Source: Candidatus Omnitrophota bacterium (GTDB lineage Bacteria > Omnitrophota > Gorgyraeia > Zapsychrales > Aceulaceae). From it: a DNA stretch of 64,000 bases. The first letter of the stretch is position 1. The number at the start of each line of letters is the position of its first letter. The stretch spans positions 104 through 64,103 of the forward strand of contig JAQUUP010000005.1 in NCBI GenBank assembly GCA_028693815.1, in the 5' to 3' direction. A model generated the notes under the pieces. The model did not search any database and was not told the DNA's origin. It saw only the letters and a list, made by a program, of their open reading frames with translations. This document shows positions 13,448 to 56,890 of the stretch, piece by piece. The position numbers and the translations under genes are program-made.

Positions 13448-13540
13448 AAACCCCACGTCGCTGAGAATCGCCCCTGGGGTAATAGTCAAGAATCAAGACA
13501 ATTGAAACCCCGATGCCCTTCGGGCACGGGGTAAATTCGC
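13448..13540 (+). repeat. double-hairpin dispersed repeat, family 2, copy A
   Basis: CCCCA..TGGGG hairpin, then TAATAGTCAAGAATCAAGACAATTGAAA, then CCCCGATGCCC-ttcg-GGGCACGGGG, then TAAATTCG. This architecture recurs at 30139, 56795 and 43462. Confidence 0.8.
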
Positions 13541-13542
13541 GC

Positions 13543-13590
13543 TAGATGACTTGACGCTCCTTTTAGTCGCGCAAGTCATGCGCTCATTTA
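13543..13590 (+). other. imperfect hairpin (GATGACTTGaCGC...GCGCAAGTCATGC)
   Basis: An 11-bp stem with one bulged base and an 11-nt loop. Confidence 0.5.
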
Positions 13591-13664
13591 AAGATGTTCA
13601 TGAGTTGAGGGAAATAATTTGAGAAAATTAATGTCGCTAAAAGATGTTTCTAGGGATTGTGAAA

Positions 13665-13697
13665 AACCGCGTTTAACCCCGCGGGTTAAACGCGGTT
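13665..13697. repeat. perfect 33-nt palindrome AACCGCGTTTAACC-ccgcg-GGTTAAACGCGGTT
   Basis: It is self-complementary and shares the AACGCGGTT tail with the family-1 REPs. Confidence 0.8.
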
Positions 13698-13728
13698 ACT
13701 AGCGCTTATGTAAAATTGGAGCTCACTT

Positions 13729-14523
13729 ATGAATCGTATTGATCAAAAATTTAAAAGTTTAAGTAAGCAGAAGAAAAAAGCGTTTATTGCTTTTATTACG
13801 GCAGGAGATCCAAACTTAAAAACAACCGAAGAGTTGGTGTTGGCTTTTGAAAAATCTGGAGTTGATATCGTTGAGCTTGGGGTGCCGTTTTCTGATCCTT
13901 TGGCAGATGGGCCAACCATTCAAGAAGCTTCTTATCGGGCGCTTAAAAATAAGGTCAGCATTATAAAAATTCTTGATTCGGTTAAAAGGATTCGAAAAGT
14001 TTCTGAGATTCCAATTTGTTTAATGACGTATTATAATCCTGTATTTCATTTTGGGGATACAAAATTTGTCGCGCAGGCAAAAGCGGCAGGTGTTGATGGT
14101 GTTATTATTCCTGATCTTCCGCCGGAGGAGGCCTCTGAATTGATTCAAGAGGCGCGAAAAAAGGATTTTTCAACAATCTTCTTTTTATCACCAACAACAA
14201 AAAAAGAGCGTATCAGCATTATCGAAAAAGCTTCGAGTGGGTTTATTTATTATGTTTCGATCGCAGGGGTGACTGGCGCACGCAAGGCTTTGCCTAAGAA
14301 TTTAAAAGAAAATTTAAAGAAAATAAAGCGTTCAATCAAAAAGCCACTATGCGTTGGGTTTGGCATTTCTAACGCACAACAAGCAAAAGAAATTTCAAAG
14401 TGCTGTGATGGTGTTATTGTCGGAAGCGCGATCATCAAAGAGATTATAAAGAATAAGGGCAAAAAGAATTTAGTTTCAAATGTTACCCGTTTTGTGAGTA
14501 GCCTTTCTGCAGCTATTAAATAG
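13729..14523 (+). CDS. trpA: tryptophan synthase alpha chain
   Basis: 264 aa with an IVELGVPFSDPLADGPTIQ motif. Confidence 0.9.
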   Translation: MNRIDQKFKSLSKQKKKAFIAFITAGDPNLKTTEELVLAFEKSGVDIVELGVPFSDPLADGPTIQEASYRALKNKVSIIKILDSVKRIRKVSEIPICLMTYYNPVFHFGDTKFVAQAKAAGVDGVIIPDLPPEEASELIQEARKKDFSTIFFLSPTTKKERISIIEKASSGFIYYVSIAGVTGARKALPKNLKENLKKIKRSIKKPLCVGFGISNAQQAKEISKCCDGVIVGSAIIKEIIKNKGKKNLVSNVTRFVSSLSAAIK

Positions 14524-14575
14524 TATTCGATAGCGTAAAAAAATCATTGAACAAATCAATAAAGGATTAATTAAA

Positions 14576-15844: not shown

Positions 15845-15963
15845 ATCTTTAGACTTTTTAAAGTGTTTTTTTCCTAAAAATGTTGACTAATCCATAAGTT
15901 ATCCATCTGCAATGACTTACATCTCAAGGAAAACTCTCAAAAAGTAGTTTTTTTTGATTCATA

Positions 15964-15972
15964 TGCTATACT
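15964..15972 (+). promoter_or_regulatory. extended -10 element TGCTATACT upstream of giant2
   Basis: It matches the ATGCTATAYT motif at 4777 and 5113, with TTGATT just upstream. Confidence 0.35.
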
Positions 15973-16016
15973 CTATCCAAGTTAATACGAAAATCTCATA
16001 AATTTAATATTTACAA

Positions 16017-19000
16017 ATGGTTCAGAAAATTAAATCAAAAAGACTAAGATCCTTTTTTAGGGGCGCGTCTATTTTCGTGCTTGTGTGCTTTGTGCAGACT
16101 TGCATTGTGCCTTTTGGCATTCCGCAGGCTCATGCGCAAGGGCTTTTGAGTCTTCCTGTGCCTGGCGCTAGTGTGTCTTTGACGCCTGCATTTTCTCCTG
16201 CTACTTTGATTGGTCTAAAAATTCATCCTGAAAATCCATTAAGAGTTGATTTTGTGGTAGATAGCGGAGATTTTGGGCTTTCCAATCAAGCATTTAAGAG
16301 CGAGACCGAAAAATTGATTAAGTATTTCTTGGCAGCACTCACAATTCCAGAAAAAGATCTCTGGGTCAATCTTTCTCCCTATGAGGAAAATCGAATCGTT
16401 GCAGACAATTTTGCTCAGACAGAAATGGGCAGAGACTTGCTTGCCCAGGATTATATCTTAAAGCAGATTACGGCGTCATTGATTTATCCAGACGACGAAC
16501 TTGGAAAAGAGTTTTGGAAACGCATCTATCAAAAGGCTTATGAAGAGTATGGAACAGCGAATATCCCTGTTGATGCGTTTAATAAGGTATGGATTGTGCC
16601 CAAAAAGGCTGTTGTTTATGAAAATGGGGATAGGGTTTTTGTGGCGGAATCGTCTCTATCCGTTATGGTGGAGCAAGACTATTTAGCCATGACAAAGCAT
16701 AGTCAAGGTAGCTCCGACGTTTCAGTCGGAGTCCCGACATCCGACGTTGGTTATAAATCAGGTAAGGAAGTCGGATCGTCGGGAAAGGTGATGCTGGAAA
16801 CGGACTATGTTGCTTTGCAAGCAAAGCAACAAGTATCTAGTGAAGAGCATCTAGTATATGGTGATAATCAGCAACCAAATACCATATCCCAAATACCAAA
16901 TACGGATAATAAATTAGCTTCCGACATTGTCCGCGAAATCATCATTCCTGCCCTTGAAAAGGAAGTCAATCAGGGCAAAAACTTTGCCCAGTTACGTCAA
17001 ATCTATAATGCCGTTATTTTAGCCGCATGGTTTAAAACAAATCTAAAAAATGCTTTGCTCAACGAAGTTTATTCTGATCAATCAAAAGTTTCAGGTGTTG
17101 ACGTTGAAGACAAAAAGATTACGGATAAAATTTATCAAAGATATCTAGAGGCTTTCAAAAAAGGTGTATGTAATTTTGTCAAAGTCGAATACGACGAGAA
17201 TGAGCATAAAAATGTTCCGAGAAAATATTTCTCAGGGGGAACGGACTTGGCTCTTTCTTCTAGCGGAATTTTAGAGAAGACGAATCAATCGTCTTCGGTC
17301 ATTCCAAGCGGGAAGTGTGCTCTTGTTGAGCAGAATTTTAGTGTTTTTTCTTCTACTGTTGTTGAGAAAATTAAGATTAAAGAGGAAGAGCCGTTTTCTG
17401 ATATTTTAAAGGATGTATCTGATAATGAGCTTTTTATTTTAAAAGATATTCTTCGTAATCTTAATGTTCATTTTGCAGAAAGTGAATCAGATTTGATTAA
17501 CGTTGAAAAGTTTTCTTTTAAAAATATTATTCTTAAGCTTAAGAAAATTCTGGATAAACATGGTGATGAAAAGAATAAACTAGATCTCCAAGATCCTAGA
17601 TCTGAAGCATTGATTGGAAGCATTAAGCTTCAGGATGATGGCATTATTTCTATTGTGCACCCGATGTTTACAACTAGTGGTGTTCATGTTGAAAATTATC
17701 CTATTGTTGTTTTTGCACAAAATATAGCCGCTGCAAATTATGAGCAAGTACGGATTCGTCATTGGATCAATTTTTTTAGAGAGCACGATAAGAATTTAGA
17801 TATAGCTATTAAAGATGGAAGATTTGGTACAATAATAAAATTTTGGATTGAAGGCAGCGATGCTCTTGGTTTAAAGAGGCCAAAAGTTGTTGCCAAGCGA
17901 AAAGAAGCATATCGAGCAAAGGTATTAGAATTTAAACAGATAGGGGCCTCTGGCAGAAATGGTTCGGGATCAAAGAATTTTAATGCTTTTCAGAGTAATG
18001 GAAAGCGGGATATCGATTTTGAGTACGATGATGAATTTGTTGTTAACTCTATTTTAGACATTTCTCCACAAGAACTTGGCAAAGTTTCTCGTGAACAATT
18101 GATTCAAAAGCTTGCTTCTTTAATGGCTATGTTAGCGGGAAAAGGTAGTCAGGAGATGGAGCTTTCAACATCAAAGGACAAAGAGCCTTTGTGGCTAGAT
18201 TTTCGAACGGAATCAGCTATTGAGAGGAATTTTTCATCATTTGAACTTTTTCTTGAAGAAGTTTTTGGGCAGGAAGGAGACAAGGAAAAGATTTCTCCTT
18301 ACAAAGCTTACTTTTTTTCAAAAGGACATAGAAAAAATGGTTCTAATGGTAAAAGTTTCTTTACTCCTCGAAAAATTGTTTTAACAATTGATAGAAAGCT
18401 CTTAAAGAATTTTATTATGAAATATAAAGAAAAACATGCTGGAGAAGGTAACGAGTCTGACCGCGTCTATATAGATGAAGATAATTTGAGAAAATATTAT
18501 ATTCTTTCGCTCTGGCTTGATCGAATGATTGAGCTTTTTGAGAAAGAAAGAGTTGTTGAGCGTTATGGTCGTATTGTTGTTGATAAAGAAAAGTTTGTTG
18601 GCGGTCGAGCTTATTCGGAAGACTTTAAATCTTTTGTTGAATTAAAGTCTGAAAAGAATATTTTTATTAATCTGGATGGAACAATTGCTGTTTATGATAG
18701 AGAAAGCGATCAGAAAGGTTATCGTTTTTATGATGATGCCGATAAGCTTTATGATGAGCTTAAAACTTTAAAGGACAATGGATTTAATATTATTCTTTGG
18801 AGTTCAAATTATGAGTGGTTTATTCGTCATAATTTTGTTCGAGAGTCTAGACATAAAAAATGGATAGACCTCTTTAGTTTTATAATCACTCAGGAAAATT
18901 ATCGTGCACCAACAGATGTGGAGCTATCTGAAACTTATTTATCAGAAGAGTTTGCGGATGCTAAAAAACTTTATGGAATTTTTGACTCTTTTAAGGATGT

Positions 19001-22000
19001 CTCTATGTTCGGTCCTTTAAACCGTTTAATCTTAAGGTCAGAACCAATTTATTCGGAGCAGCGAACAGCTATAGAATCAAGGGTTGGTGATAGCACTTGT
19101 GTGATTGGTTATCGTGGAGAGGGAATTGATGGTATGGCCCAAAGAATCTTAAGTGAGGTTTTAACTGAGGCAGAAAAGACTCAGATAGAAAAAGCAAAAA
19201 AAGAGAAATTAGAAAAAATTGAGAAGGAAAAGGCTGAGCGAGAGCGAGTGGAGAAGGCGAGATTAGAGAAAATTGTGAAAGAAAAGGAGCAGCAAGCGAA
19301 GATCGCTGCAGAAAAGAAAGCTCAACGAGATGCAAAAAAGAAAGAAAGAGAAGAAAAAGAGCTAAAAATCAGAGCTTTTTCAAAGGATTATATAAAAGAG
19401 GCAGCAGCTGCAGAAATAATTTTAGAGAACATACTTCATAAGTACCCTCAGATGATGTTTGCGATTAGACTTTTTTCAAATGTTTATGAAAAAGCAGTAG
19501 GATTAGAGGAAAGTGATGACAATAATCAAATTGTAAGCGTGATTTCTGCTTTTTTTGCGATGCAAATAAAACGTCTTGCTTATAGGTCAGGAAAAACTTT
19601 AGATGAATATTTAGAGATCATATCTGGCAATGTCATTGACTCAGAAGGAAAAGTGACGCAACGAGAGGAAGTTGAAGAAATCAAGATTCTTTTGAGAGAT
19701 ATTTTAATTCATGAACTAATTAATGATGAGACGGATGAGTTAATGATTGAAAAGAAAGAAAAGGAATCAATGAGTGGTGACTTGATAATTAAAAAGATGC
19801 TAGACAATGGGATTCCGAAAGCTTTGGGAACTTCAGCGATAAATATTGAAGGATTATTAAGCGCATCTCAGGGAAGCGGTCAGGAAAAGAAAGTATCGCT
19901 GAACAAACAAGCAGCTCAAGCTGTCTCTTCGCTTCTGGATCAAATTTTTGATGATAAGTTTGATTTAGATGGCATAGAAAATCAGGAAAAACTTAAGAAG
20001 GAGATGGACCGCATTGGCTTGTTGATTTTAAGAGATTCGCAGCGAGATATATCTTCTAAAATAAAACATTGGGCGAAAGAGTTTCAAGGGTTTTCACAGG
20101 AAACAATTTTAAGTCGGTGGGCGAAATATAAAGAATCACAATTAAAGAATAAAAAAGATCTTTTGAAGTTTCATGTAACTCTTGCTGATGCGCAAAAAGG
20201 GTATTTGACGATTGAAGTAGTGCTTAAGCTTATCGAGCAGATGCAAGATATTTATAAAAAACTTGATGCAAAAGAAAGAAAAGAATTTTCTTTTCAAGAA
20301 TGGATTGATCTTTGGGATATCAAAATTGATTCTTTTGTTGATAATCTTTTTGATTGTTATCGTTTGGCTGATGGGACTTTTTATTTTTCTAAATTGCCAA
20401 ATTCGCTGCATCCATATTTTGTTAAAACTGGTAATAATTTATATGAATTAAAAGAAGCTTCTCATGGTAATCAGGTTAATTATTTTGACATTTGGTCCAA
20501 GTGGGTTTTTCCGGTTTTTCATAATTTTGAATCTGTTCCTGAAGCAAAAGTCCCTGGCATGCTCAATGCTGATGTGACGTTTTTCATGAATGATCCGAAA
20601 AGATTGGACAGTACTTTTTATACTTATAATGTGTTTCGCATGTTTGAGAAATTTCTAGCGAATATTTCAGTTGATAAGTTTTTTATTTTTAATGTTGATC
20701 ATGGAAAAGAAAAGCTTCCAGCACAAGCAACTGGTATTGTGCGTTATAAGAAAGATGGGACGAGGGATTTGGTGGGTCAGACAAAGGATTTTAAAGATAA
20801 AATAATAAAACTGTTATCAGAGAAGAGATTTTTACAAAACGCGGATTTAAATGGCTTACTGCTTGCTCTTTATGTTCTAGCTGACGAGACGGATGTTGAT
20901 CTTTTGCAATGGTATGGACAATATAAAATTGTCGAAGATCTCTTTGAGGGGGACAGGAGTGGAAATGGCCTTAGTTCTGAGAATAATATCGCACGTGCAC
21001 GTCATTTTGATCGCGGTGTACGCACGTTAGCATTTTATATCTTAGATAAGCTTGCTGGTGGTTTTGAAAAGTTTACAGAAGATTCCTTTGTTGACATAAA
21101 TAAGATTCAGAGCTCGGATGTTGTTATTTTTAAGGAGATAATTCTTCCGTCCGAATATTATAATCAGACAAAGTTCCCTGTTCTTGAGATGGTGGAGGGT
21201 GGATATATAACTTCTGGTGTAGCTGCTCAGATGATACAAATAGAATCTATGTTTTCTCTTGAGCCGCGTGCGTTTAATATTCTTAAGTTAATTCACGGCT
21301 TAGGGCAATCGCTTATTATGGAACCATCTCTTGATCGTAGCGTTTATGTTTTGGGTGATCAAATTCGGGCTGCAAGCAAAGGGTTTCATCCTGCTCATTT
21401 TGCTGAAGATGCACACCGTTACGTGGATTCTGACGGAGTTGTTTTTACACTAGAAGAGGTTGCGCAGAAGAAAAAAACAAAAGAAGAATTCGTAGCAACT
21501 AATACTGATTCAATGGATCTGATCGATTTATCATTAGATGAATATGCTAGGGTTTTTGAGAATTTAACAAGCAAGATTGATTTATCTGTTTTGATTAATT
21601 TGACATTAGAGAAGTATGCTGAGACGCTTACTATGGCTGTAAATTTCTCAGTGCAAAGATATTTGCCTTTGATCAAGAAAGTTATTGAAATACGTAATGA
21701 ATATTTTGAACGATATCAACAATATCCTGCGATTTCTATTGTCAGTAATCGTGATCAAGTTCCAAATGATGCTTTTATTGAGCCAAAAGAAATGAACAAT
21801 AGGGATATCGCAAATAAAATTTTAGGTACAGGACTTCCTGACATTATCCCTCTTAATGGTCAATTGGTCGAAAATTTAGCCGTAGAGCATATTGAGAGCT
21901 TGTTATCTTCTGGGGATGACACACAAGTTTTAAAGCCAGTTGATTCGAATGATAATCGACTTTTTCCTGCGCTGGCCGCAGATCAACTACTCCAAATTTT

Positions 22001-25000
22001 TGGGATCATCAATGCTTCAAGCAAATCAATGGCAATGATTAATCATATTGCTCGTCAGTTTCAGACGAAAGAAGATCTTGAAGATCTTTTGGCTTGTGTT
22101 TTGGGTAATTTTTCTTCCAAGCTTTCTTATCGATCTTCTTTGACCGCTAATTTTATTGTACAAAAAGGTTTTGCCACAAATGAGCAGATGTCAATGGCCT
22201 TTGGGCCGGCCTATCGTTATGACTCCTTTAATCCGTATTATTCTTTAGACAATATTCATTTCTTTGATATTCCAGAATACGGAGTTCCTCAGAATATTAA
22301 TTTTTCATATTATTTTGATTCAAATGAAAAGGCAATTCTTTATCAAATAGCGGAGAATAAGGGTGGGCATGAATTTGTCCGCTATGAATATTCTGGATCT
22401 AAGAGGATTAGTAAAGATTTTGTCCGAGATAGAAAAGAAGATCTTAATTCTGATATTGCAGAGGTTTTAATTGCTTTGGATCGTTTGGCAAATAAAACTC
22501 TTGATTTTGCAGATAAGAAATATGGGGATTTTAAATTAGATGTAGAAAAAGAATTTGGAGCAAAGATTGATGATAGCAATAAATATTTGTTTCTTGAAAA
22601 ATTGCTTGATGCTGTGCTTGATGCTTTGCAAGAAACAGAAATATCTAATGATGGTGAGTTTCTTGACATGCTTTTAAAGGTAGAAAGGGGTGTTGTTTTA
22701 GCAAAAACATTAATTGAGACACGAAATAGTATGGACGAGCTATATCCGTTTGCTTTAGAAAATCGGGTCGAGAATTTTGAATATATTGAGAAGCGTATTG
22801 AAGAATCTAAAGAAGATCAAAAAATAAATATGTATATTGAGCAGAGATTTGCTGGTGCGATTTCAGAGAATTTTCGCGCTTTGATTGAGGGGCTTCTCCA
22901 GTCTAGTCCAAGGATTAAGGTGGATCTTTATATTTTGAGTGATGATCCAAATTATGATTTTGTTCCAAGGAATGGAAATCAAATTGTCGATCCTTATCAA
23001 GGATTTACGACTACGGTTGTTCGCAGTTTAGATGAGCTTGAAGTAATCAAAAAACAAGATTGTCTTCATGTTGGATTGAATTATGATGATTTTGAAAATC
23101 CTCAAGACGAAAATATTTTTGTTGTGGATCTTGCGCATAATGTTCAAGGGGAACTTGATTTTTCACTGAAACGCCAAGAATTATCAACGAGACTCAATCT
23201 TGATCTAGATGATCCTTCTGGATCTATTCCGATCAATCCAGCTTTATTGAAACGAAAAAAGATTCGTAACGAAATTTGGTCTTTAGATGATCTCCTGAGA
23301 CGCAGAGGCGCATTTTTAGATAAAATTTTAACTTCTAAGCAGTTGGAAGTATTGCAATCGAGCGTAGATGCGTTGCCGGACGGCAAAAGCGTTTTTAATG
23401 TTAACATGTCTGTTTTGTCATATATGTCACCAAGTAATCTAGAAAAGTTTCTAGAAGAGATGAGTATCTTAAGATCAGCTATTCTTGATGATGATTTGAA
23501 TGATATTTTTATTAGCGCTGGAGAGGAGCACGGTAAGCAGATTGTTCTTCTTTGGGAGGATTCAGGGTACGTAGCCGAGAGGCTTGATCTTAAGAAGTTA
23601 ACAGATGACATTGGGATTACAGTTATTGACCAAGCTGGAGAGGTTTATCCCGGATTAAAAGAAAAAAGAATTCCTGTAACAATTATTCGCTGTCATGAGT
23701 TGAGTGAAAAACAAAGAAAAGAACTCTTTTCTGAATTGGCTGGAACGGCGAAAATAGTAGAAAAAGATTTGGGTAATGGAAAAGGAAAGAGTAGATTCTT
23801 TGTTGATTTCCCGATTTATATTTCTGGTATGTCTTCGAAATTTTTTAATTTATTATCCACAGGGTCGATGTTTATTCACGATAATTTTGTGATCAAGACT
23901 GGTGAAATGAAATCTTATCTTCAAAATATTCTTAGAAGGGCTTTTGCTTTTGAATCGAAGGATCGGAATAATGGCCCAGCAATTCATAAAGCAGAAATCC
24001 TTGTGCCTGATATGATCATGGGAGGCCAGGCAAAGAATTCTAGGATAGTGATTCAGAAAGGATCTCATAACAACGAAATAAAGACTGCTGCCACATTTGG
24101 GCCAATGTTTGCTTTGGGGAAATATTCTGATCTTGTTGGTAGAACACTGCATTCGCAATCGATTGCTGAAACTTTTTCTAATTTTTCAGCTGTTGAAGAT
24201 TTGCTCTGCGGGATTGCTGGAAGGATTATTGAAGCAGAGGATGTTCCTAATAAATCATCTGTTTTTATTAAATCAAAAGCAGATTCTGATCAATTGGGCA
24301 GTGCAGCACAACCCAAAGAACAGCCTTCGTCTTCAACTAAGAAATTTTTTCCCCCGAAAGAACATTCTCTTTATGCAGGGTTTATGTGGTTGCAACAAAA
24401 TAGTCCGGAATATTTTAATCTTTTTATCAAAAAAGCAAAGAATCCTAATATGGTTATTAAGGATAAAAGTTTTATTGCTGCTGTTACGGATTGCGGGTTG
24501 TGGAACGGCAAGGATGGAGAAGCCGGAGATATTTTGCCAGAAGCAAGGCAATTTGTATTGGACAGCATTAAGGCGTCCGAAGATGAGGCAGGTAACTTTG
24601 ATGAAGGGGCCGATGTATCAAGTAGTGCCATTAGCGATCATTTTAAGGTTGATGATCAAGGACATATAAAATATGTTGATGAAAATTTTAAAGAAAATCC
24701 TACTATCAAACTTGATTTTGAAATGATTGGTTTTCGTCATATGATTACGTTTGCGAATGAACAAGGAATTCTGCAAGGGGGGCCTAGTAACGGTGAAGAT
24801 AATAAGCTAAGTGAAGAAGGAAAAAGGCAGGCCACAGAGGATTTAGCTCCAGCACTTTATGCAATGCTTAAAGAAAAAATTGAGCAAGGAAAGAAAATAG
24901 TGATTGCTCTTAGTGAGGCAGACAGGACGATTGAAAGTATTCAGCCCTTTATTAATTTTGTTAAGGAAACACTCGGCATTGATTTAGAGGTTAAGGTCTA

Positions 25001-25655
25001 TCCTCAGTCCAACGAAAGATCTTTTGGCAACTATGAAGGGAAAACATTGAGCGAGTTTCAGGAAAGTGATTCGGAGACTTACATAAAGGTTATTAAAAAG
25101 TTTGATTCTACAGCTAAAATAGGAGGAGGCGAAAGCGATATCGATGCTCTCAGCCGTTCTTATGATTTTCTTCAAGCGCTGAAAAAAGAGTATGATAACA
25201 CGGACACAACCGTTGTCCTTGTAAATCATGGAATGTTTCTTCTTGCTTGCTTGGCTAATTTGGGACACAATCGGGTTGCGGATGAAAACGAAAATATTAA
25301 TTTCTGGAAATTTGATGGTACATTTCCTGGTCATGGCGAAATTATTAATCTTTCTGACCCTAAGAGCGATTATGAAAAAAAATCTGGCATAATTTCTGCA
25401 TATGATCCGAAAGCAAGCACAGGCGGTATTGATTTTAGTTCTGATAAACTTGATTTGGAAACTAGAGGCCAGGGGATTGATTTTACGATTCCAGATGAAT
25501 TGCGTAATATCGATTGGGCGGACGTTGATGGGCTTGTTCCTATGATTATTGAGATTATTCCATTGGTCAATTTCCAGGGATTTGTGCGGGGAGAAGATGA
25601 GGCTGAGTTTCTTAAGGAACAAGATTTAGCTTATTTTGATTTGACAAAGTCATAA
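16017..25655 (+). CDS. giant secreted multidomain protein (3212 aa), paralog 2
   Basis: The 9.6-kb ORF is uninterrupted and the product has a signal peptide. The N-terminal module is homologous to giant1. A HAD-like motif (IFINLDGT...ILWSSN) lies at about 18655-18900. A K/E-rich coiled coil lies at about 19170-19380. A histidine-phosphatase-like region lies at about 24700-25330 (RHM...LSEEGKRQA ... VVLVNHG). Confidence 0.85.
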   Translation: MVQKIKSKRLRSFFRGASIFVLVCFVQTCIVPFGIPQAHAQGLLSLPVPGASVSLTPAFSPATLIGLKIHPENPLRVDFVVDSGDFGLSNQAFKSETEKLIKYFLAALTIPEKDLWVNLSPYEENRIVADNFAQTEMGRDLLAQDYILKQITASLIYPDDELGKEFWKRIYQKAYEEYGTANIPVDAFNKVWIVPKKAVVYENGDRVFVAESSLSVMVEQDYLAMTKHSQGSSDVSVGVPTSDVGYKSGKEVGSSGKVMLETDYVALQAKQQVSSEEHLVYGDNQQPNTISQIPNTDNKLASDIVREIIIPALEKEVNQGKNFAQLRQIYNAVILAAWFKTNLKNALLNEVYSDQSKVSGVDVEDKKITDKIYQRYLEAFKKGVCNFVKVEYDENEHKNVPRKYFSGGTDLALSSSGILEKTNQSSSVIPSGKCALVEQNFSVFSSTVVEKIKIKEEEPFSDILKDVSDNELFILKDILRNLNVHFAESESDLINVEKFSFKNIILKLKKILDKHGDEKNKLDLQDPRSEALIGSIKLQDDGIISIVHPMFTTSGVHVENYPIVVFAQNIAAANYEQVRIRHWINFFREHDKNLDIAIKDGRFGTIIKFWIEGSDALGLKRPKVVAKRKEAYRAKVLEFKQIGASGRNGSGSKNFNAFQSNGKRDIDFEYDDEFVVNSILDISPQELGKVSREQLIQKLASLMAMLAGKGSQEMELSTSKDKEPLWLDFRTESAIERNFSSFELFLEEVFGQEGDKEKISPYKAYFFSKGHRKNGSNGKSFFTPRKIVLTIDRKLLKNFIMKYKEKHAGEGNESDRVYIDEDNLRKYYILSLWLDRMIELFEKERVVERYGRIVVDKEKFVGGRAYSEDFKSFVELKSEKNIFINLDGTIAVYDRESDQKGYRFYDDADKLYDELKTLKDNGFNIILWSSNYEWFIRHNFVRESRHKKWIDLFSFIITQENYRAPTDVELSETYLSEEFADAKKLYGIFDSFKDVSMFGPLNRLILRSEPIYSEQRTAIESRVGDSTCVIGYRGEGIDGMAQRILSEVLTEAEKTQIEKAKKEKLEKIEKEKAERERVEKARLEKIVKEKEQQAKIAAEKKAQRDAKKKEREEKELKIRAFSKDYIKEAAAAEIILENILHKYPQMMFAIRLFSNVYEKAVGLEESDDNNQIVSVISAFFAMQIKRLAYRSGKTLDEYLEIISGNVIDSEGKVTQREEVEEIKILLRDILIHELINDETDELMIEKKEKESMSGDLIIKKMLDNGIPKALGTSAINIEGLLSASQGSGQEKKVSLNKQAAQAVSSLLDQIFDDKFDLDGIENQEKLKKEMDRIGLLILRDSQRDISSKIKHWAKEFQGFSQETILSRWAKYKESQLKNKKDLLKFHVTLADAQKGYLTIEVVLKLIEQMQDIYKKLDAKERKEFSFQEWIDLWDIKIDSFVDNLFDCYRLADGTFYFSKLPNSLHPYFVKTGNNLYELKEASHGNQVNYFDIWSKWVFPVFHNFESVPEAKVPGMLNADVTFFMNDPKRLDSTFYTYNVFRMFEKFLANISVDKFFIFNVDHGKEKLPAQATGIVRYKKDGTRDLVGQTKDFKDKIIKLLSEKRFLQNADLNGLLLALYVLADETDVDLLQWYGQYKIVEDLFEGDRSGNGLSSENNIARARHFDRGVRTLAFYILDKLAGGFEKFTEDSFVDINKIQSSDVVIFKEIILPSEYYNQTKFPVLEMVEGGYITSGVAAQMIQIESMFSLEPRAFNILKLIHGLGQSLIMEPSLDRSVYVLGDQIRAASKGFHPAHFAEDAHRYVDSDGVVFTLEEVAQKKKTKEEFVATNTDSMDLIDLSLDEYARVFENLTSKIDLSVLINLTLEKYAETLTMAVNFSVQRYLPLIKKVIEIRNEYFERYQQYPAISIVSNRDQVPNDAFIEPKEMNNRDIANKILGTGLPDIIPLNGQLVENLAVEHIESLLSSGDDTQVLKPVDSNDNRLFPALAADQLLQIFGIINASSKSMAMINHIARQFQTKEDLEDLLACVLGNFSSKLSYRSSLTANFIVQKGFATNEQMSMAFGPAYRYDSFNPYYSLDNIHFFDIPEYGVPQNINFSYYFDSNEKAILYQIAENKGGHEFVRYEYSGSKRISKDFVRDRKEDLNSDIAEVLIALDRLANKTLDFADKKYGDFKLDVEKEFGAKIDDSNKYLFLEKLLDAVLDALQETEISNDGEFLDMLLKVERGVVLAKTLIETRNSMDELYPFALENRVENFEYIEKRIEESKEDQKINMYIEQRFAGAISENFRALIEGLLQSSPRIKVDLYILSDDPNYDFVPRNGNQIVDPYQGFTTTVVRSLDELEVIKKQDCLHVGLNYDDFENPQDENIFVVDLAHNVQGELDFSLKRQELSTRLNLDLDDPSGSIPINPALLKRKKIRNEIWSLDDLLRRRGAFLDKILTSKQLEVLQSSVDALPDGKSVFNVNMSVLSYMSPSNLEKFLEEMSILRSAILDDDLNDIFISAGEEHGKQIVLLWEDSGYVAERLDLKKLTDDIGITVIDQAGEVYPGLKEKRIPVTIIRCHELSEKQRKELFSELAGTAKIVEKDLGNGKGKSRFFVDFPIYISGMSSKFFNLLSTGSMFIHDNFVIKTGEMKSYLQNILRRAFAFESKDRNNGPAIHKAEILVPDMIMGGQAKNSRIVIQKGSHNNEIKTAATFGPMFALGKYSDLVGRTLHSQSIAETFSNFSAVEDLLCGIAGRIIEAEDVPNKSSVFIKSKADSDQLGSAAQPKEQPSSSTKKFFPPKEHSLYAGFMWLQQNSPEYFNLFIKKAKNPNMVIKDKSFIAAVTDCGLWNGKDGEAGDILPEARQFVLDSIKASEDEAGNFDEGADVSSSAISDHFKVDDQGHIKYVDENFKENPTIKLDFEMIGFRHMITFANEQGILQGGPSNGEDNKLSEEGKRQATEDLAPALYAMLKEKIEQGKKIVIALSEADRTIESIQPFINFVKETLGIDLEVKVYPQSNERSFGNYEGKTLSEFQESDSETYIKVIKKFDSTAKIGGGESDIDALSRSYDFLQALKKEYDNTDTTVVLVNHGMFLLACLANLGHNRVADENENINFWKFDGTFPGHGEIINLSDPKSDYEKKSGIISAYDPKASTGGIDFSSDKLDLETRGQGIDFTIPDELRNIDWADVDGLVPMIIEIIPLVNFQGFVRGEDEAEFLKEQDLAYFDLTKS

Positions 25656-30079: not shown

Positions 30080-30138
30080 AATTTTTTCCTTAAATGAGGC
30101 CGAAACTTATGGAATTTTTATGATATAAGTTTTTTGGC

Positions 30139-30236
30139 CGAATTTACCTCATGCCCGAAGGGCATTGGGGTTTCAATTATTTTGATTCTTGAACGTTACC
30201 CCATGCCCGAAAGGCATTGGGTTGAAATAGAAGTAT
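30139..30236 (-). repeat. double-hairpin dispersed repeat, family 2, copy B (inverted orientation)
   Basis: The reverse complement reads CCCAATGCC-tttcg-GGCATGGGG, then TAACGTTCAAGAATCAAAATAATTGAAA, then CCCCAATGCCC-ttcg-GGGCATGAGG, then TAAATTCGG. Confidence 0.8.
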
Positions 30237-39776: not shown

Positions 39777-40372
39777 TGGAATCTAATTGGGTCTATACCG
39801 ATAAAGTTAAAGAGCATTTTATGCATCCAAAAAATGTTTTAAAGGATGATGAGGGTTTTAAGCCGGATGGTGAAGGAATGGTTGGAAATATTAAATGTGG
39901 CGATCAAATGATGATGATGATTAAAGTTAAGGATGATATGATTATTGATTGTCGATGGAAGACATACGGATGCGCATCGGCGATTGCAAGCACATCGGTT
40001 CTTTCTGAGATGATTAAAGGAATGAGTCTTAAAAAAGCATTTAAATTAACGCCAAAAGAAATTATGCAGCAATTAGGGTCTCTTCCAGAGCATAAAATTC
40101 ATTGCTCGGTTTTGGGAGATAAAGCGCTACGTGCTGCGATTAATGATTATTATCAAAAAAATGGCATGACTGATAAGGTTTGCAAGGAAGAGGCAAAGAT
40201 TATTTGTCAATGTATGAATGTTACTGATCACGAAATAGAAGATGCTGTTTTAGAAGGTGCTCGAACGTATTATGAGCTTCAAGAGCGGACAAAGCTTGGG
40301 ACGGTTTGTGGTCAGTGTGAAACAGAAGCAAAAGTGATTTTGGAAAAATACATTAAAGAACATTTTAAATAA
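39776..40372 (+). CDS. NifU-like Fe-S scaffold (IscU-like N-terminal domain plus BFD-like [2Fe-2S] domain)
   Basis: The Cys residues in GNIKCGDQMM and CASAI match IscU. The BFD-like Cys pairs are CQCMNV...CGQC. Confidence 0.75.
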   Translation: MESNWVYTDKVKEHFMHPKNVLKDDEGFKPDGEGMVGNIKCGDQMMMMIKVKDDMIIDCRWKTYGCASAIASTSVLSEMIKGMSLKKAFKLTPKEIMQQLGSLPEHKIHCSVLGDKALRAAINDYYQKNGMTDKVCKEEAKIICQCMNVTDHEIEDAVLEGARTYYELQERTKLGTVCGQCETEAKVILEKYIKEHFK

Positions 40373-40419
40373 GAGCGTAACTTAGAGAACTTAGTGAGAT
40401 AAGTTGTTTGCTTGAATTT

Positions 40420-40453
40420 ATCCTTGACCATCAAAATGTAAAAGGTCAAGGAT
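40420..40453 (+). other. perfect 10-bp hairpin ATCCTTGACC / GGTCAAGGAT with a 14-nt loop
   Basis: An inverted repeat downstream of the nifU-like gene. It has no U-tract. Confidence 0.5.
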
Positions 40454-40486: not shown

Positions 40487-40735
40487 ATGGCAAAGTTTGA
40501 TGCGAAAGCTTTTGGAATTAGTTGTGGAGTTGTTTGGGGTGTTGGTATGTTTTTTCTTGGAATTTTCGATATTTTTTCAACGTGGGGTTGCGGGATAACC
40601 AAAATGATGTCAACGCTTTATATCGGGTATCAGCCTACAATTTTAGGAAGCGTTATTGGCGCCCTTTGGGGATTTGTGGATGCTGGCATTGGTGGTTTTG
40701 TTTTCGCACTTTTGTATAACAAATTAGCGAAATAA
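40487..40735 (+). CDS. small Gly/Trp-rich membrane protein, hypothetical
   Basis: 82 aa with two predicted transmembrane segments. A GGAGGG RBS lies upstream. Confidence 0.5.
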   Translation: MAKFDAKAFGISCGVVWGVGMFFLGIFDIFSTWGCGITKMMSTLYIGYQPTILGSVIGALWGFVDAGIGGFVFALLYNKLAK

Positions 40736-40753
40736 AGTAGAGCATAGGTTTAG

Positions 40754-40795
40754 ATGGGCGGCCTTTAAAAAAAAGGCCGCCCATTTTTATTTATT
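40754..40795 (+). terminator. rho-independent terminator (possibly bidirectional)
   Basis: ATGGGCGGCC-tttaaaaaaaa-GGCCGCCCAT followed by TTTTATTTATT. Confidence 0.85.
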
Positions 40796-40889
40796 CAATC
40801 ATTAAAACTTAAGACTTTTTTTGTTAAGTAGCAAAGATTTATGTTATAATCACATATCATTTTTTGTATTTTAAAATAAGGAGATTAGT

Positions 40890-43450: not shown

Positions 43451-43461
43451 CTTAAGGAAAT

Positions 43462-43497
43462 CCCGATACCCTTTGGGTACGGGATAAATTCGGACTA
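43462..43497 (+). repeat. single-hairpin unit of the family-2 repeat, copy D
   Basis: TTAAGGAAATCCCGATACCC-ttt-GGGTACGGGATAAATTCGG. It has the same flanks as copies A-C, and its stem differs by compensatory changes. Confidence 0.75.
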
Positions 43498-43550
43498 ATA
43501 ATTTACGAGCGCTTCGCTCTACAAATTATGTCCTCATTTAGGAGGGAAAG

Positions 43551-48958: not shown

Positions 48959-49001
48959 AAATTTACGTCAGTTGATAATAACGAAGAAGGAGGAAAAGGA
49001 A

Positions 49002-49271: not shown

Positions 49272-49280
49272 GGTTAGTTA

Positions 49281-54380: not shown

Positions 54381-54394
54381 TATCTAATCTAATC

Positions 54395-55693
54395 GTGCAA
54401 TTTTCAAAAATCCCAATTGTTAATCAAATCCCAAAGTCTTCTAGTGTACGGCTTATTAATTTGGGCTGTGCGCGGAATTTAGTCGATTCCCAGATTATAT
54501 TAGGCCGGCTTAAGAAAAAAAATCATGCGATTGTCCATAGCCAAAAAGCAGATGTTGTTATTTTAAACACATGTGCTTTTATTGAAACGGCAAAAAAAGA
54601 AACAATTGATTTAATCTTAGAGCTCATTGATTTAAAGAAAAGCGGCATTATTAAAAGAATTGCCGTTGTTGGATGTTTTCCAGAGCGTTATCCAAAGCAA
54701 ATGCGTAAAGAGTTTAAGGAAGTAGATTTCATCGACGGTGTATTGAGTTTGGAGAAAGAGGAGAATGAAAAGAAGGTTGTTCTGACACCAAAATCTTATG
54801 TGTATTTGAAAATTTGTGAAAGTTGTTATAATCTTTGCCATTTTTGTGTGATTCCTAAAATTAAAGGAAAGTTTGTTTCGCGTTCGATAGAATCAATCAC
54901 AAGAGAAGCAAAACGGCTTGATCGAAAAAAGATCAAAGAAATAAATATTATTGGCCAAGATATTACTGCCTATGGGCTTGATCTATACAAACACAAAGCC
55001 CTTGTTGACTTGCTTAAGAGTTTGTTAAAAAATACAAGTCAGATTAAATGGTTTCGGCTGTTGTATGCATATCCTTCGCATGTCACAGATGAGTTGCTTG
55101 ATTTGATGCAGAGCCAAAAGCGTATTTGTCAATATCTAGATATTCCTTTGCAGCATGTAAATGATAAAATTTTACGAGACATGAATCGGCATTTCTTTAA
55201 AAAAGAAATTATTGCTTTGATCAAGAAAATTCGTAATAAAATGCCTGAATGTTGCTTGCGAACTTCTTTTATTGTTGGCTATCCGGGCGAGACTGAGGCT
55301 CAGTTTAAGGAATTATGCGCATTTGTTCGAAAGTTTCAGTTTGATCGATTAGGTGTCTTCATGTATTCAAGAGAAGAGGGCACTAAAGCTGCTTGTTTGC
55401 CAAATCAGATTTCAGAGGATGTCAAACAAAGACGATATGACACCTTGATGAAAATTCAGCAGGGGATTTCAACGTCTAAGCTCAGGCGTTTTATCGGCAA
55501 GAAACTTTTTGTTGTTGTTGACGAAGAAATAAAGAATGAAAAGGGATTATATGTCGGTCGTAGTCAATATGATGCGCCTGAAGTCGATGGTGTTATTTAT
55601 ATTGAGACGCGAAAGAAGCTAAAATCTGGTGATTTTTTTAAGGTTGAAATAATAGACAGTTATGAGTATGATTTATTAGGGAAGCCTTGCTAG
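54395..55693 (+). CDS. rimO: MiaB/RimO-family radical-SAM methylthiotransferase (probably RimO)
   Basis: It has a CxxxCxxC radical-SAM motif (CESCYNLCHFC), N-terminal Cys and a C-terminal TRAM domain. The start codon is GTG. Confidence 0.75.
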   Translation: MQFSKIPIVNQIPKSSSVRLINLGCARNLVDSQIILGRLKKKNHAIVHSQKADVVILNTCAFIETAKKETIDLILELIDLKKSGIIKRIAVVGCFPERYPKQMRKEFKEVDFIDGVLSLEKEENEKKVVLTPKSYVYLKICESCYNLCHFCVIPKIKGKFVSRSIESITREAKRLDRKKIKEINIIGQDITAYGLDLYKHKALVDLLKSLLKNTSQIKWFRLLYAYPSHVTDELLDLMQSQKRICQYLDIPLQHVNDKILRDMNRHFFKKEIIALIKKIRNKMPECCLRTSFIVGYPGETEAQFKELCAFVRKFQFDRLGVFMYSREEGTKAACLPNQISEDVKQRRYDTLMKIQQGISTSKLRRFIGKKLFVVVDEEIKNEKGLYVGRSQYDAPEVDGVIYIETRKKLKSGDFFKVEIIDSYEYDLLGKPC

Positions 55694-55745
55694 AGAGTAA
55701 AATTTTTAGTAAAACAAATAGTGGCAAGACTTAGGAGTAAAATAA

Positions 55746-56324
55746 ATGAACCTTGCAAACAAAATAACGATATCACGTATTTTTCTAACATTTTTGTTTA
55801 TTTTTTTTATCGGGCAGGAAAGTTTAATTTTTGCTATTTTGGCAACGGTGACATTTGCTTTGGCATCGCTGACGGATTATTATGATGGGTATGTTGCTAA
55901 GAAGTATAATCTAGTTAGCGATTTTGGAAAATTAATGGATCCGATTGCAGATAAATTCTTGATGTTAGCTGCTTTTCTTGCTTTTGTTCGTATGAATATT
56001 GTCATTGATTGGATGGTTGTTTTAATTTTGGGTCGAGAAATTCTTGTGACTGGATTAAGAATTTTTGCTTTAACGAAGCAAAAAGTGTTGGCTGCGGAAA
56101 GAGGGGGAAAGCACAAAACGGTTTCGCAAGTAGTTGCTATTTTTATTATTTTAGGATTTATTATTTTTAAACGATTGGTTACTATTATTTCTGGCTGGTC
56201 TGAAGATATTGAATTTTGGTGGAAGGTTGGAATCAACATCTCGATGCTCATCACGGTTGCATTAACGTTGATTTCTGGACTTTCTTATTTTTGGCGAAAC
56301 CGTAATTTAATAAAAACACAATGA
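55746..56324 (+). CDS. pgsA: CDP-diacylglycerol--glycerol-3-phosphate 3-phosphatidyltransferase
   Basis: It has the CDP-alcohol phosphatidyltransferase motif DYYDGYVAKK...GKLMDPIADK. Confidence 0.85.
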   Translation: MNLANKITISRIFLTFLFIFFIGQESLIFAILATVTFALASLTDYYDGYVAKKYNLVSDFGKLMDPIADKFLMLAAFLAFVRMNIVIDWMVVLILGREILVTGLRIFALTKQKVLAAERGGKHKTVSQVVAIFIILGFIIFKRLVTIISGWSEDIEFWWKVGINISMLITVALTLISGLSYFWRNRNLIKTQ

Positions 56325-56776
56325 AAAATATATTGATAAAGACAGTTTCAACTTTCTTTGGGATTGGCTATGTTCCTGTTGCTCCAGGGAGCGCTGCTAG
56401 CGTAGTCGCTGGTGTTATGTGTTTTTTGCTTTTTAATAATATGTATCTTTATATTTTTGTTTTTTTTGTTGTGACTATTTGCGGTTTTCTCATTTCTGGA
56501 AAAATGGAGGATATTGTTAAGGAAAAAGATCCTTCTTGTGTTGTGATCGATGAGGTTTCTGGAATGATGATTACTTTTTTTATGTTGCCTAGAACTTGGC
56601 CTGTGTTGATTACGGCATTTTTTCTGTTTCGTGCATTTGATATGTTTAAAATTTATCCTGTGAGTTATTTTGAGAAAAAACCAGGCGGTATTGGTATTAT
56701 GATGGATGATGTTGCCGCAGGGCTTTATGCAAATATTGTTATGCAAATCTCTTTGTTTATTTTTAGGTCAAATTAA
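56321..56776 (+). CDS. pgpA: phosphatidylglycerophosphatase A
   Basis: 151 aa with an FFGIGYVPVAPGSAASVVAG motif. Confidence 0.8.
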   Translation: MKNILIKTVSTFFGIGYVPVAPGSAASVVAGVMCFLLFNNMYLYIFVFFVVTICGFLISGKMEDIVKEKDPSCVVIDEVSGMMITFFMLPRTWPVLITAFFLFRAFDMFKIYPVSYFEKKPGGIGIMMDDVAAGLYANIVMQISLFIFRSN

Positions 56777-56794
56777 TTTTTAGTAATTTTTAAG

Positions 56795-56890
56795 GAAGTC
56801 CTGACGCGCTTTCACGCGCGGGATAAAGTTCAAGAATCTAAACGTTCAATATCCCGACGCGCTTTCACGCTCGGGATAAATTCGCCCCTG
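56795..56890 (+). repeat. double-hairpin dispersed repeat, family 2, copy C
   Basis: TCCTGACGCGC-tttca-CGCGCGGGA, then TAAAGTTCAAGAATCTAAACGTTCAATA, then TCCCGACGCGC-tttca-CGCTCGGGA, then TAAATTCGCC. Confidence 0.8.

Follow-up and report, generated by a model that had tools for sequence, protein, structure and literature searches.

Among described bacterial repeats, those closest to the family reported here are the REP/RAYT systems known from E. coli, Pseudomonas and Stenotrophomonas. The Correia/NEMIS elements of Neisseria and other MITEs are noncoding intergenic sequences of 100-160 nt that are co-transcribed with their neighbours and affect the neighbouring mRNA. REPs carry GTAG or CGTC tags, form head-to-head and tail-to-tail dimers and have termini that supply stop codons (Di Nocera et al. 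2013, PMC3733652), and the 3′ end of a gene can be copied together with a REP into BIMEs (Nunvar et al. 2010, PMC2817692). The Omnitrophota repeat, which consists of a variable hairpin (HP1) and a conserved hairpin (HP2), has much in common with REP/BIME/REPIN elements, including short G/C-rich imperfect extragenic palindromes at high density, the occurrence of singles, inverted dimers able to form one long hairpin and mosaic clusters, termini that give stop codons, copying of a gene 3′ end with the repeat, and a RAYT-like gene in the genome. Several features speak against a REP-like reading: the GTAG or CGTC tag is absent from the termini (HP2 TAAAT../..ATTTA), the composite unit of 80-260 nt (variable HP1 plus conserved HP2 of 55-75 nt) is larger than classical REPs of 20-40 nt, and the flanks of the RAYT gene are of another type. 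The loci are interpreted, with moderate confidence, as non-coding, non-autonomous, modular palindromic DNA repeats of the REP/BIME (REPIN-like) mobile kind. The novelty of the family, which the original prediction had proposed, is borne out in that Rfam gives no match at the window loci at the gathering threshold, nor even at E<=1 for four loci with high-scoring copies, and the family itself appears to be previously undescribed; in kind it resembles the REP/BIME/REPIN class and does not constitute a wholly new category.

The window, which is the whole 64 kb stretch of DNA analysed, contains five copies detectable with a covariance model:

13451-13590, plus strand: copy A (54 bits)
13451-13479, plus strand: copy A, first hairpin HP1a, degenerate
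13480-13507, plus strand: copy A, linker
13508-13531, plus strand: copy A, second hairpin HP1b, CCCCG-A-TGCCC TTCG GGGCA CGGGG
13532-13590, plus strand: copy A, HP2, TAAATTCG..CTCATTTA
30091-30221, minus strand: copy B (58.1 bits)
30221-30199, 30198-30171, 30170-30147 and 30146-30091, minus strand: HP1a, linker, HP1b and HP2 of copy B
56799-56939, plus strand: copy C (32.9 bits)
56799-56823, 56824-56851, 56852-56876 and 56877-56939, plus strand: HP1a, linker, HP1b and HP2 of copy C
43461-43540, plus strand: copy D (58.9 bits)
43461-43484 and 43485-43540, plus strand: single HP1 and HP2 of copy D
40366-40452, minus strand: copy E (35.5 bits)
40452-40421 and 40420-40366, minus strand: HP1 (TCCTTGACC..GGTCAAGGA) and HP2 of copy E

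The original prediction had placed four of these loci correctly, with TrpB, PgpA and YchF as neighbours, and had missed copy E. Its extent of about 90 nt took in only the 5′ part of copies that are in fact longer, and HP2 was overlooked. The G/C-clamped hairpins fold as claimed, the five elements reaching -12.7 to -32.3 kcal/mol when folded as DNA, with z-scores of -2.75 to -6.0 relative to shuffled sequences. Copies A, B and C share the linker GTYCAAGAATCWARA, and the paired hairpins are near-duplicates inside B and inside C, with stems that are unlike between loci yet remain paired (TGCCC/GGGCA, TACCC/GGGTA, CGCGC/GCGCG). The supposedly single-stranded tail TAAATTCG is the 5′ arm of HP2 and is closed by CTCATTTA 40-47 nt further on; four such TAAATTCG..CTCATTTA pairs occur in the window, whereas 1000 shuffles gave 0.008 on average.

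Copies lie after gene stops, as predicted, and also directly before starts, with an SD/ATG within about 12 nt. Copy A begins 5 nt after the stop codon of trpB, whose product carries a PALP domain and which is followed by trpA. Copy C lies between the pgpA stop (56776) and the AGGAGG..ATG of a BaxI-like gene (56950), and copy D between the ychF stop (43450) and the SD/ATG of a DUF4139 gene (43551). The terminus of copy E provides the stop codon of a NifU-like gene (39776-40372; plus-strand TAAATAAG). Copy B makes up essentially all of the 5′ UTR of rpmB (L28, 30079-29849, minus strand), with a sigma-70-like promoter upstream (TTGACA 30259-30254, TATACT 30237-30232).

In the general family, a unit has at least one G/C-clamped hairpin (HP1) and then the conserved imperfect hairpin HP2, and among all fetched loci the form with two hairpins and a linker occurs in this genome only. 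HP1 is highly variable within the frame YCCC..GGGR, with termini A|YCCC..GGGR|T. HP2, which is 55-63 nt long in the window copies, runs in its 5′ half through TAAAT, TC, a G-N-N-C stem, a 2-nt 5′ bulge and ATAACTTAYG, and after the loop through CRTAAGTTAT, G-N-N-C, TC and ATTTA. Additional hairpins are optionally inserted at the bulge, and the module can lie either way round, so that its internal loops are UC/UC or GA/GA. Units placed back to back generate HP2′-HP1-HP2 doublets, of which at least 10 were seen; these are 150-257 nt long, have inverted HP2 ends that start with TA and end with TA, and occupy entire intergenic spacers, reaching exactly from the stop codon to the SD. Within a doublet the two HP2 arms differ in sequence, and single units, from which inverted ends are absent, are far more numerous.

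Two other modular systems invite comparison. Integron attC sites conserve structure over sequence and are recognised as folded single-stranded DNA, and their layout of outer helix, unpaired spacer, inner helix, extrahelical bases and variable terminal stem-loop is shared by the repeat. An attC identity was rejected: RYYYAAC/GTTRRRY boxes are absent (the boxes are TAAATTCG and CTCATTTA), the copies lie in housekeeping operons and not in cassette arrays, and no integron integrase was found in the repeat context. BOX elements of Streptococcus pneumoniae, which are intergenic, co-transcribed and hairpin-forming, carry a repeated internal module between conserved end modules and are alike in modular build; their sequence is unrelated, and BOX modules are not G/C-clamped palindromes abutting stop or start codons.

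A scan of public genomes with the two HP2 boxes returned at least 120 loci, mostly in Candidatus Omnitrophota MAGs; as the pattern itself fixed both boxes, their invariance in this set reflects ascertainment. The family is present in more than 100 genomes, mainly Omnitrophota, and the HP2 sequence is conserved across the phylum and beyond, which is unusual for REPs. Density reaches 6 copies in 8 kb at locus L065, and tandem copies are present at L087; no phage, plasmid or viral copies of the repeat were found. Among the scan matches listed (at least 120 loci) plus the window, 110 distinct canonical copies were aligned, and 96.8% of HP2 cells are paired. The covariation score is 0.438 against 0.119 for shuffled alignments and at most 0.083 for slid controls, with double-sided changes in 229 cells against 64 in shuffles. 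All four Watson-Crick pair types are used at several positions (CG, GC, AU and UA at both 9-58 and 10-57), and the terminal helix covaries in copies found by the model (TAAAT/ATTTA, TTAAT/ATTAA, TAAGT/ACTTA, CAAAT/ATTTG). These data support the original view of a genuine dispersed family whose sequence variation preserves pairing.

The doublets, with inverted HP2 ends comparable to the inverted ends of Correia/NEMIS elements and MITEs, raise the possibility of a DDE-derived MITE (e.g., IS630/Tc1-like, with a TA target), in which the doublet would be the full element, TAAATGAG/CTCATTTA its terminal inverted repeats, TA the duplicated target and the single HP1+HP2 forms deletion derivatives. TA insertion in a TAA stop would also explain the stop overlap and the ...TTTA|AGGAGG right flank. 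We nevertheless consider this origin very unlikely, as the terminal bases take part in a covarying helix and depart from TA in some copies (TTAAT..ATTAA, CAAAT..ATTTG, TCAAC..ATTGA), the HP2 arms within one doublet differ and singles greatly exceed doublets. Unlike Correia/NEMIS elements and MITEs, the repeat has no fixed TA duplication and most copies are without terminal inverted repeats; flanking repeats are absent or of 22-45 bp (7-10 nt possible) and do not begin with TA. No parent insertion sequence was found, and no recurring transposase was present among 934 neighbouring ORFs.

HP2 always has its outer ATTTA end turned towards a gene boundary, which may be a stop codon, the 3′ end of a tRNA or a start codon, and all copies are intergenic or overlap gene ends. 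Among the scan matches listed, the stop codon falls within TAAATGAG in 33 of 49 opposite-oriented cases, as for GroES in L052; HP2 meets the 3′ ends of four tRNA genes with a gap of 0 nt, and start codons follow the ATTTA end at 0-14 nt. The left junctions are not uniform (TAA|T, TAG|T, TGA|A, AGT|C), and the neighbours are housekeeping genes such as trpB/trpA, ychF, rpmB, ilvC and groES/EL. This exact abutment would also fit an RNA-processing signal under selection, and it is an argument for a cis-acting RNA "punctuation" in which transcribed HP2 hairpins are endoribonuclease targets or 5′/3′ end-protecting stem-loops that fix the 3′ termini of mRNAs and tRNAs upstream as well as the 5′ leaders of the genes downstream, with selection maintaining them and mobility incidental. 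The doublets running exactly from stop to SD, the optional extra hairpins at the bulge, the phylum-wide sequence conservation and the position of copy B as 5′ UTR of an essential ribosomal protein gene are all in line with such a role, which we regard as a tentative possibility, somewhat unlikely overall. The occurrence of the module in both orientations, with different internal loops, and the lack of an Rfam match count against it.

Base-pair usage bears on the same question. True RNA helix sets usually show many G·U pairs and few A·C mismatches, whereas HP2 shows 23 of each, irrespective of orientation to the flanking genes. The pairing is preserved as the original prediction had held, and because G·U and A·C are equal, its "classic compensatory variation" gives no indication of RNA. 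The G·U share is 3.2% when the sense strand is folded and 2.3% for the antisense strand (OR 1.38, p=0.03), a slight excess in favour of an RNA role that can also stem from strand-biased C-to-T mutation in a genome with a GC skew of about 0.2. Among the scan matches listed, copies are oriented at random relative to transcription (43 same, 36 opposite), and they show no replication-strand bias relative to the G-rich strand (53 vs 49). Intrinsic terminators were rejected: as predicted, the copies have no U-tract, HP1 being followed by TAAATTCG and HP2 by AGGAGG or ATG, and canonical terminators with a G/C stem and T-run occur elsewhere in the window (40753-40797 and about 9012-9046).

Comparison of orthologous intergenic regions, the check originally proposed, reveals turnover. 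Copy A is absent from L211 and L212, only a stub of copy B is left in L211, and the sites of copies D and E are empty in L127, where the spacer orthologous to that of copy D measures 12 nt; the covariance model gives no match in 68 kb of the closest relatives. At each of the four sites compared, genus-level relatives have either nothing or a decayed remnant, so the element is not required at any locus, which weakens the case for RNA punctuation; the CTCATTTATG remnant before trpA, kept in both the window and L211, strengthens it. Of the three options originally offered, the mobile miniature element is the best, and the family behaves like mobile DNA of the REP/BIME type, not like a dedicated RNA gene. 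The number of copies in the ilvC-leuA spacer also varies: none in L020, one each in L040 and L101, and two, unlike each other, in L087.

Duplications of 22-45 bp of the 3′ end of the upstream gene flank the repeat at L087 (twice), L040, L044, L049 and copy A, only where HP1 adjoins that gene end, and shorter flanking repeats of 7-10 nt are possible at copies C and D. At copy A the two members are:

13412-13445, plus strand: upstream member of the 34-nt direct repeat, formed by the final 34 nt of trpB, stop codon included
13589-13622, plus strand: decayed downstream member, TAAAGATGTTCATGAGTTGAGGGAAATAATTTGA

These two trpB ends differ from each other at 9/36 positions, which is about the between-species level, and the decayed downstream copy is nearer to the trpB end of L212 (4/36 differences) than the functional copy is (10/36). 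The flanking duplications could alternatively arise by recombination with imported DNA, and these distances, together with the variable repeat lengths and the restriction to the HP1 side, suit a spread with no dedicated enzyme, by homology-facilitated illegitimate recombination of imported DNA plus local slippage, in which the apparent duplications would be a foreign gene end beside the resident one. This origin seems highly doubtful, as it leaves unexplained the sharp conserved CTCATTTA end, the conserved bulge and internal loops, the high local density, the independent insertions of different subfamilies at one site in L087 and the flanking repeats of L044, which are 29/31 identical.

Under the favoured reading as REP/BIME-type mobile repeats, the perfect Watson-Crick hairpins would be kept as single-stranded-DNA recognition structures for a trans-acting enzyme, most plausibly an HUH/Y1 tyrosine transposase of the RAYT type, that copies or moves the element. 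Landing may be favoured at A/T-rich TAAA/TTTA motifs marking gene ends, and the inserted element would be co-transcribed with its neighbours, and its hairpins would affect the mRNA only secondarily, as stem-loops that insulate it or protect its ends and not as terminators. The variable 22-45 bp duplications are, to our knowledge, no known product of HUH/Y1 transposition. The same placement and duplications could reflect a new gene-boundary-seeking mobile element, an idea we hold to be unlikely, which would home by TAAAT/ATTTA microhomology to stops, tRNA 3′ ends and start-codon leaders, rebuild the stop or leader, produce long duplications of variable length (22-45 bp, possibly down to 7 bp) and depend on an enzyme conserved across the Omnitrophota; if so, the repeat may have been co-opted as the operon punctuation signal of the phylum. 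Boundary homing combined with long variable duplications matches no prokaryotic transposition chemistry that we know of.

Imperfect hairpins with unpaired bases and single units without terminal inverted repeats are also common to IS200/IS605 right-end hairpins and PATEs. The IS608 TnpA relies on pairing between guide and cleavage site, which the pairing of the ATTTA end with TAAAT 5′ of the hairpin foot resembles. An IS200/IS605 miniature was rejected given the lack of a conserved 5′ target tetranucleotide, the strand count above and the presence of duplications, which IS200/IS605 elements, as far as we know, do not make.

A candidate enzyme gene lies 3.3 kb upstream of copy A:

9541-10215, plus strand: RAYT-like Y1 (HUH) transposase gene

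This gene and its homologues at L207-L210 are flanked by low-copy AACC..CCTACGAGG..GGTT palindromes (family-1) and not by HP1/HP2, so that the defining REP-RAYT link, a RAYT gene flanked by REPs of the same family, is not seen for HP1/HP2 at these genes. As its own flanking REPs belong to another family, the RAYT is only a candidate for the mobilising enzyme. No RAYT gene was found in 874 kb of HP2-bearing loci, where the expectation is only about 0.5. RAYT homologues are widespread in Omnitrophota, each protein cluster occurring on one to a few contigs. The proposed resemblance between the TAAATTCG tail and the head of the family-1 REP is confined to this genome; elsewhere the family-1 arms differ.

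The dispersed repeat in the window is a composite element in which each repeat unit consists of HP1, a variable G/C-clamped hairpin or hairpins (YCCC...GGGR), followed by HP2, a conserved imperfect hairpin. The original prediction described G/C-clamped hairpins at four loci; these are present on rereading those loci, as is the claimed common linker, a 28-nt sequence separating the two HP1 hairpins of copies A, B and C. In every copy, the box TAAATTCG follows the last G/C-clamped hairpin and the box CTCATTTA lies 40-47 nt further on, and the stretch between the boxes is itself HP2. Four such box pairs are present in the window, compared with an average of 0.008 over 1000 shuffles, and an HP2 covariance model recovers copies A to D plus a fifth copy, E, whose HP2 (40366-40420, minus strand) is preceded by its own G/C-clamped hairpin. 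The prediction had thus captured only the 5′ half of each element and missed one copy.

Copies of the HP1/HP2 family in the window
13451-13590 (+), copy A, 3′ of trpB
30091-30221 (-), copy B, forming the rpmB 5′ UTR behind a sigma-70-like promoter
40366-40452 (-), copy E, providing the stop codon of a NifU-like gene
43461-43540 (+), copy D, 3′ of ychF
56799-56939 (+), copy C, 3′ of pgpA

From the outside inward, the 5′ side of HP2 comprises TAAAT, an unpaired TC, a 4-bp G-N-N-C helix and a 2-nt bulge on the 5′ strand, beside which some copies carry a small additional 5′-strand hairpin. A 10-bp core helix around ATAACTTAYG/CRTAAGTTAT encloses a variable loop, and the 3′ side continues with G-N-N-C, TC and ATTTA. 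As DNA, the five elements fold with energies between -12.7 and -32.3 kcal/mol (z-scores between -2.75 and -6.0). No copy is followed by a U-tract, in agreement with the prediction, and canonical terminators do occur elsewhere in this genome. A search across the window for extra HP1-only hairpins found none beyond the five copies. Inside a giant ORF, at 16713-16784, are G/C-clamped hairpins in a nested arrangement (TCCGACG.., TCCCGAC..GTCGGGA; -24 to -26 kcal/mol), with no HP2 after them. In the HP2 alignment A1, the unpaired TC recurs at three places: it follows TAAAT and precedes both CRTAAG and ATTTA.

Pairing-preserving variation, which the prediction claimed for the clamped stems, is also found in HP2, where the covariation statistics rest on 76 sequences. 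Standard pairs fill 96.8% of HP2 cells versus 79.9% in shuffles, and both-sided changes are found in 229 cells versus 64. The HP2 covariation score is 0.438, compared with 0.119 for shuffled sequences and at most 0.083 for slid partners, and all four Watson-Crick pairs are used at positions 9-58 and 10-57. Box positions are ascertained, having been set by the scan pattern, and so are the first three inner pairs, which served as the selection criterion for canonical copies; no selection was applied to the HP2 inner helix. Among copies found by the model, the terminal helix also covaries (TAAAT/ATTTA, TTAAT/ATTAA, TAAGT/ACTTA, CAAAT/ATTTG), and ATTTA is therefore part of the element.

Departures from pairing are divided among G·U (23), A·C (23) and other combinations (34) and are independent of orientation to the flanking genes, a pattern that is the signature of a DNA-level palindrome and not of a wobble-tolerant RNA helix. 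G·U pairs make up 3.2% when the sense strand is folded and 2.3% when the antisense strand is (odds ratio 1.38, p=0.03); this small sense-strand excess could equally be explained by strand-biased mutation, and an RNA-level role of the element at gene boundaries is still conceivable. The strand asymmetry of folding energy was discarded as an RNA test, since the constant UC/UC versus GA/GA loops account for most of it and it is alike in both orientation classes, and the G·U versus A·C counts were substituted for it.

A scan with the pattern GRGR-TAAATTCG-N32-60-CTCATTTA, covering one genome per species, returned at least 120 loci. Among the matches listed, at least 49 of 80 titles are Omnitrophota or Omnitrophica, the remaining listed titles carry Planctomycetia/Planctomycetales, 'delta proteobacterium', Thermodesulfovibrionia and Bacteroidota labels, and there are also a few chance matches in unrelated genera. 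The canonical fold is found in 112 of 130 box pairs from the scan loci and the window, 110 of them distinct. The HP2 model gives 122 matches in 734 kb, reaching six within 8 kb, and many copies lack exact boxes. The linker of copies A, B and C is absent from all other fetched loci. Bacteroidota-labelled copies (L041, L072, L080, L085, L089) form a subfamily in which the inner stem ATTTCAG/CTGAAAT replaces ACTTACG/CGTAAGT. The strict two-box pattern gave 6 matches in viral contigs (IMG/VR), all chance and without a hairpin, and copy D had no blastn match in plasmids and phages. For membership in a known Rfam family, which the prediction had named among the findings that would refute it, there was no match at the elements either in the window at the gathering threshold or, with the cutoff loosened to E<=1, in four loci that contain strong copies.

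The elements are fitted closely to gene boundaries. The predicted placement after plus-strand stops holds for copies A, C and D; copy B instead forms a 5′ UTR, and the promoter ahead of it is also kept in the relative L211. By a crude gene call, the genes on both sides share the element's strand for 43 copies and lie on the opposite strand for 36. The window is about 37% G+C, is strongly GC-skewed and encodes nearly all of its genes on a single strand; a bias of copies to the G-rich strand is absent (53 vs 49). HP2 is always placed with its outer (ATTTA) end toward the gene boundary, and HP1 lies to the inside. In co-oriented copies the next start codon lies at 0 to +14 nt, commonly through the junctions CTCATTTA-AGGAGG-N-ATG or CTCATTTATG. 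Where the orientation is opposite, the stop of the neighbouring gene falls inside the terminus TAAATGAG in 33 of 49 cases (TAA 25, TGA 8); GroES, for example, ends ...ATT AAA TGA inside the element in L052 and ...ATC AAA TAA with no element in L019. Inverted doublets, with the layout TAAATGAG-HP2′-CGAATTTA-HP1-TAAATTCG-HP2-CTCATTTA, occupy the entire spacer between the upstream gene's stop and the Shine-Dalgarno sequence ahead of the following gene. Among the 934 ORFs at the loci, the search for a recurrent neighbour, a transposase included, turned up housekeeping clusters only. In four genomes the outer end directly adjoins the 3′ end of a tRNA gene.

HP2 outer ends at tRNA 3′ ends (0-nt gap)
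L113 2464-2593, tRNA-Gly
L114 4909-5037, tRNA-Gly
L121 5362-5507, tRNA-Leu
L060 2817-2958, tRNA-Ser

CCA is not encoded in these four tRNA genes. At L044 364-640, two elements adjoin an opposite-strand sequence that resembles a tRNA gene's 5′ part, where ARAGORN calls no tRNA.

Orthologous spacers were compared in relatives, as the prediction had proposed. Between ilvC and leuA, L020 has no element, L040 and L101 have one copy each, and L087 has two different copies. L127 is the closest YchF relative (76% identity); in its syntenic region the ychF spacer at the D site is 12 nt long (TAA-C-AAGGAGAGAGT-ATG), and the NifU spacer measures 37 nt where the window has E and a small membrane-protein gene. 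Proteins of the Omnitrophota genus Candidatus Aceula match the window TrpB at 88-89% identity; copy A is missing in L211 and L212 (TrpB 88-89%), with trpB and trpA overlapping in L212, and only a 6-bp hairpin and CTCATTA remain at the B site in L211. The HP2 model found no match in L127, L211 or L212. These empty or decayed sites show that the elements turn over between genus-level relatives, and such turnover, together with a phylum-wide HP2 consensus, is what one would expect if a conserved factor recognises a mobile family.

The L211 trpB-trpA spacer (11180-11222) resembles a collapsed HP2 (AAAT-TC-CTC..GAG-C-TC-ATTTA, ending GGAGCTCATTTATG), and GGAGCTCA(C/T)TTATG precedes trpA in the window (13698-13731) as in L211; what was once an element's closing helix may have become the Shine-Dalgarno sequence. 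Adjoining copy E, the small membrane-protein ORF (40487-40797; 82 aa, no Pfam match) carries a canonical intrinsic terminator (GGGCGGCC..GGCCGCCC plus a T-run), and as both are absent from the 37-nt L127 spacer, the ORF and E may have arrived together.

Six copies are flanked by direct repeats of the last 22-45 nt of the upstream gene, stop included, and in all six HP1 adjoins the end of that gene.

Direct repeats flanking copies
L087, both copies, 22 nt
L040, 45 nt
L044, 31 nt, 29 identical
L049, 22 nt
Copy A, 34 nt, 25 identical

The downstream repeat of copy A still encodes DKDVHELREII* and resembles the trpB end of L212 more closely than the functional copy does. Shorter SD-like repeats occur at D (TTAAGGA / TTTAGGA) and C (TTTAAGGARG). 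The L044 repeat takes in part of the tRNA-like sequence. The varying duplication length matches neither DDE nor HUH chemistry as known, and a literature search for MITEs with long duplications found none. The variable duplications recall the reported copying of a gene 3′ end plus REP into BIMEs (PMC2817692); alternatively, they could stem from recombination with imported DNA.

The window also encodes a Y1/HUH transposase (ORF 9541-10215, plus strand; Pfam Y1_Tnp, E=4e-9) with the motifs HVHFVL and YVHLNPV, scoring 68 bits, under the cutoff of 80, for the NCBIfam 'REP-associated tyrosine transposase' (RAYT), with E. coli TnpA-REP (4ER8) as its best solved relative. Its homologues number more than 2000, at about 55-60% identity; many come from Omnitrophota, and the members of any one cluster are seen on only one to a few contigs. 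In the window and four other genomes the gene is bordered on both sides by the palindrome AACC...CCTACGAGG...GGTT (family 1), which is low-copy and clustered near it.

Family-1 palindromes (ACCGAATTCAACCTACGAGGTTGAACGCGGTT) in the window
8900-8931
9073-9104
9487-9518
10220-10251
10269-10300
13666-13697

Homologues in other Omnitrophota are flanked by the same palindrome type, with a conserved CCTACGAGG centre, and the RAYT gene and its REPs are missing at the syntenic site in L211 and L212. In tblastn against all loci, the window RAYT matched only in the purposely fetched RAYT loci. As family 1, and not HP1/HP2, flanks the gene, the REP-RAYT association is found for family 1 only. The proposed likeness of the tail to the family-1 REP head does not indicate kinship, the common GAATTCG being confined to this genome. 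RAYT is the best candidate for the mobilising enzyme of the HP1/HP2 family only by analogy.

HP1/HP2 is a real, widespread palindromic repeat family, best filed as a variant of REP/BIME-kind mobile DNA. Like REPs, which are palindromes at gene ends with termini supplying stops, head-to-head dimers and mosaic clusters (PMC3733652), its members share all these traits with the REP/BIME/REPIN group; unlike them, the element lacks the REP sequence tag and same-family RAYT flanks, and is larger and composite. The family does not show the defining features of MITEs, IS200/IS605, attC, terminators or Rfam families. A TA-target MITE was rejected on account of the terminal bases, which covary and in some copies differ from TA, and attC, dif/Xer, CRISPR-like, ribozyme and terminator readings were dropped on anatomy, with defining boxes or context absent.

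The Omnitrophota are uncultured and mostly ultra-small, with compact genomes. Literature searches found no earlier description of repeats in the phylum, nor any discussion of repeats in the one searchable paper on Omnitrophota with RNA motifs; nothing appears to have been described so far of its repeated DNA, and the HP1/HP2 family is apparently without earlier description. A single palindromic module filling stop-to-start spacers in more than 100 species would affect gene calling, because stops and starts lie within the repeat, and would also bear on MAG assembly, binning and operon mRNA structure. The family offers a tractable case of REP-like spread by a sequence unlike REPs beside a resident RAYT, and could reveal the origin of long, variable-length target duplications. 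If it is merely another REP-like family, its practical value is the annotation model R1 for a phylum without one.

Elsewhere in the window, a c-di-GMP-I riboswitch (65 bits; 4794-4945, plus strand) lies upstream of a 1219-aa ORF (5241-8900), and a second is found at L100 814-893. The N-terminal region of this ORF (5548-6146) is a paralogue, with 71-76% DNA identity, of the corresponding region (16306-17048) in the 3212-aa giant ORF (16017-25655).
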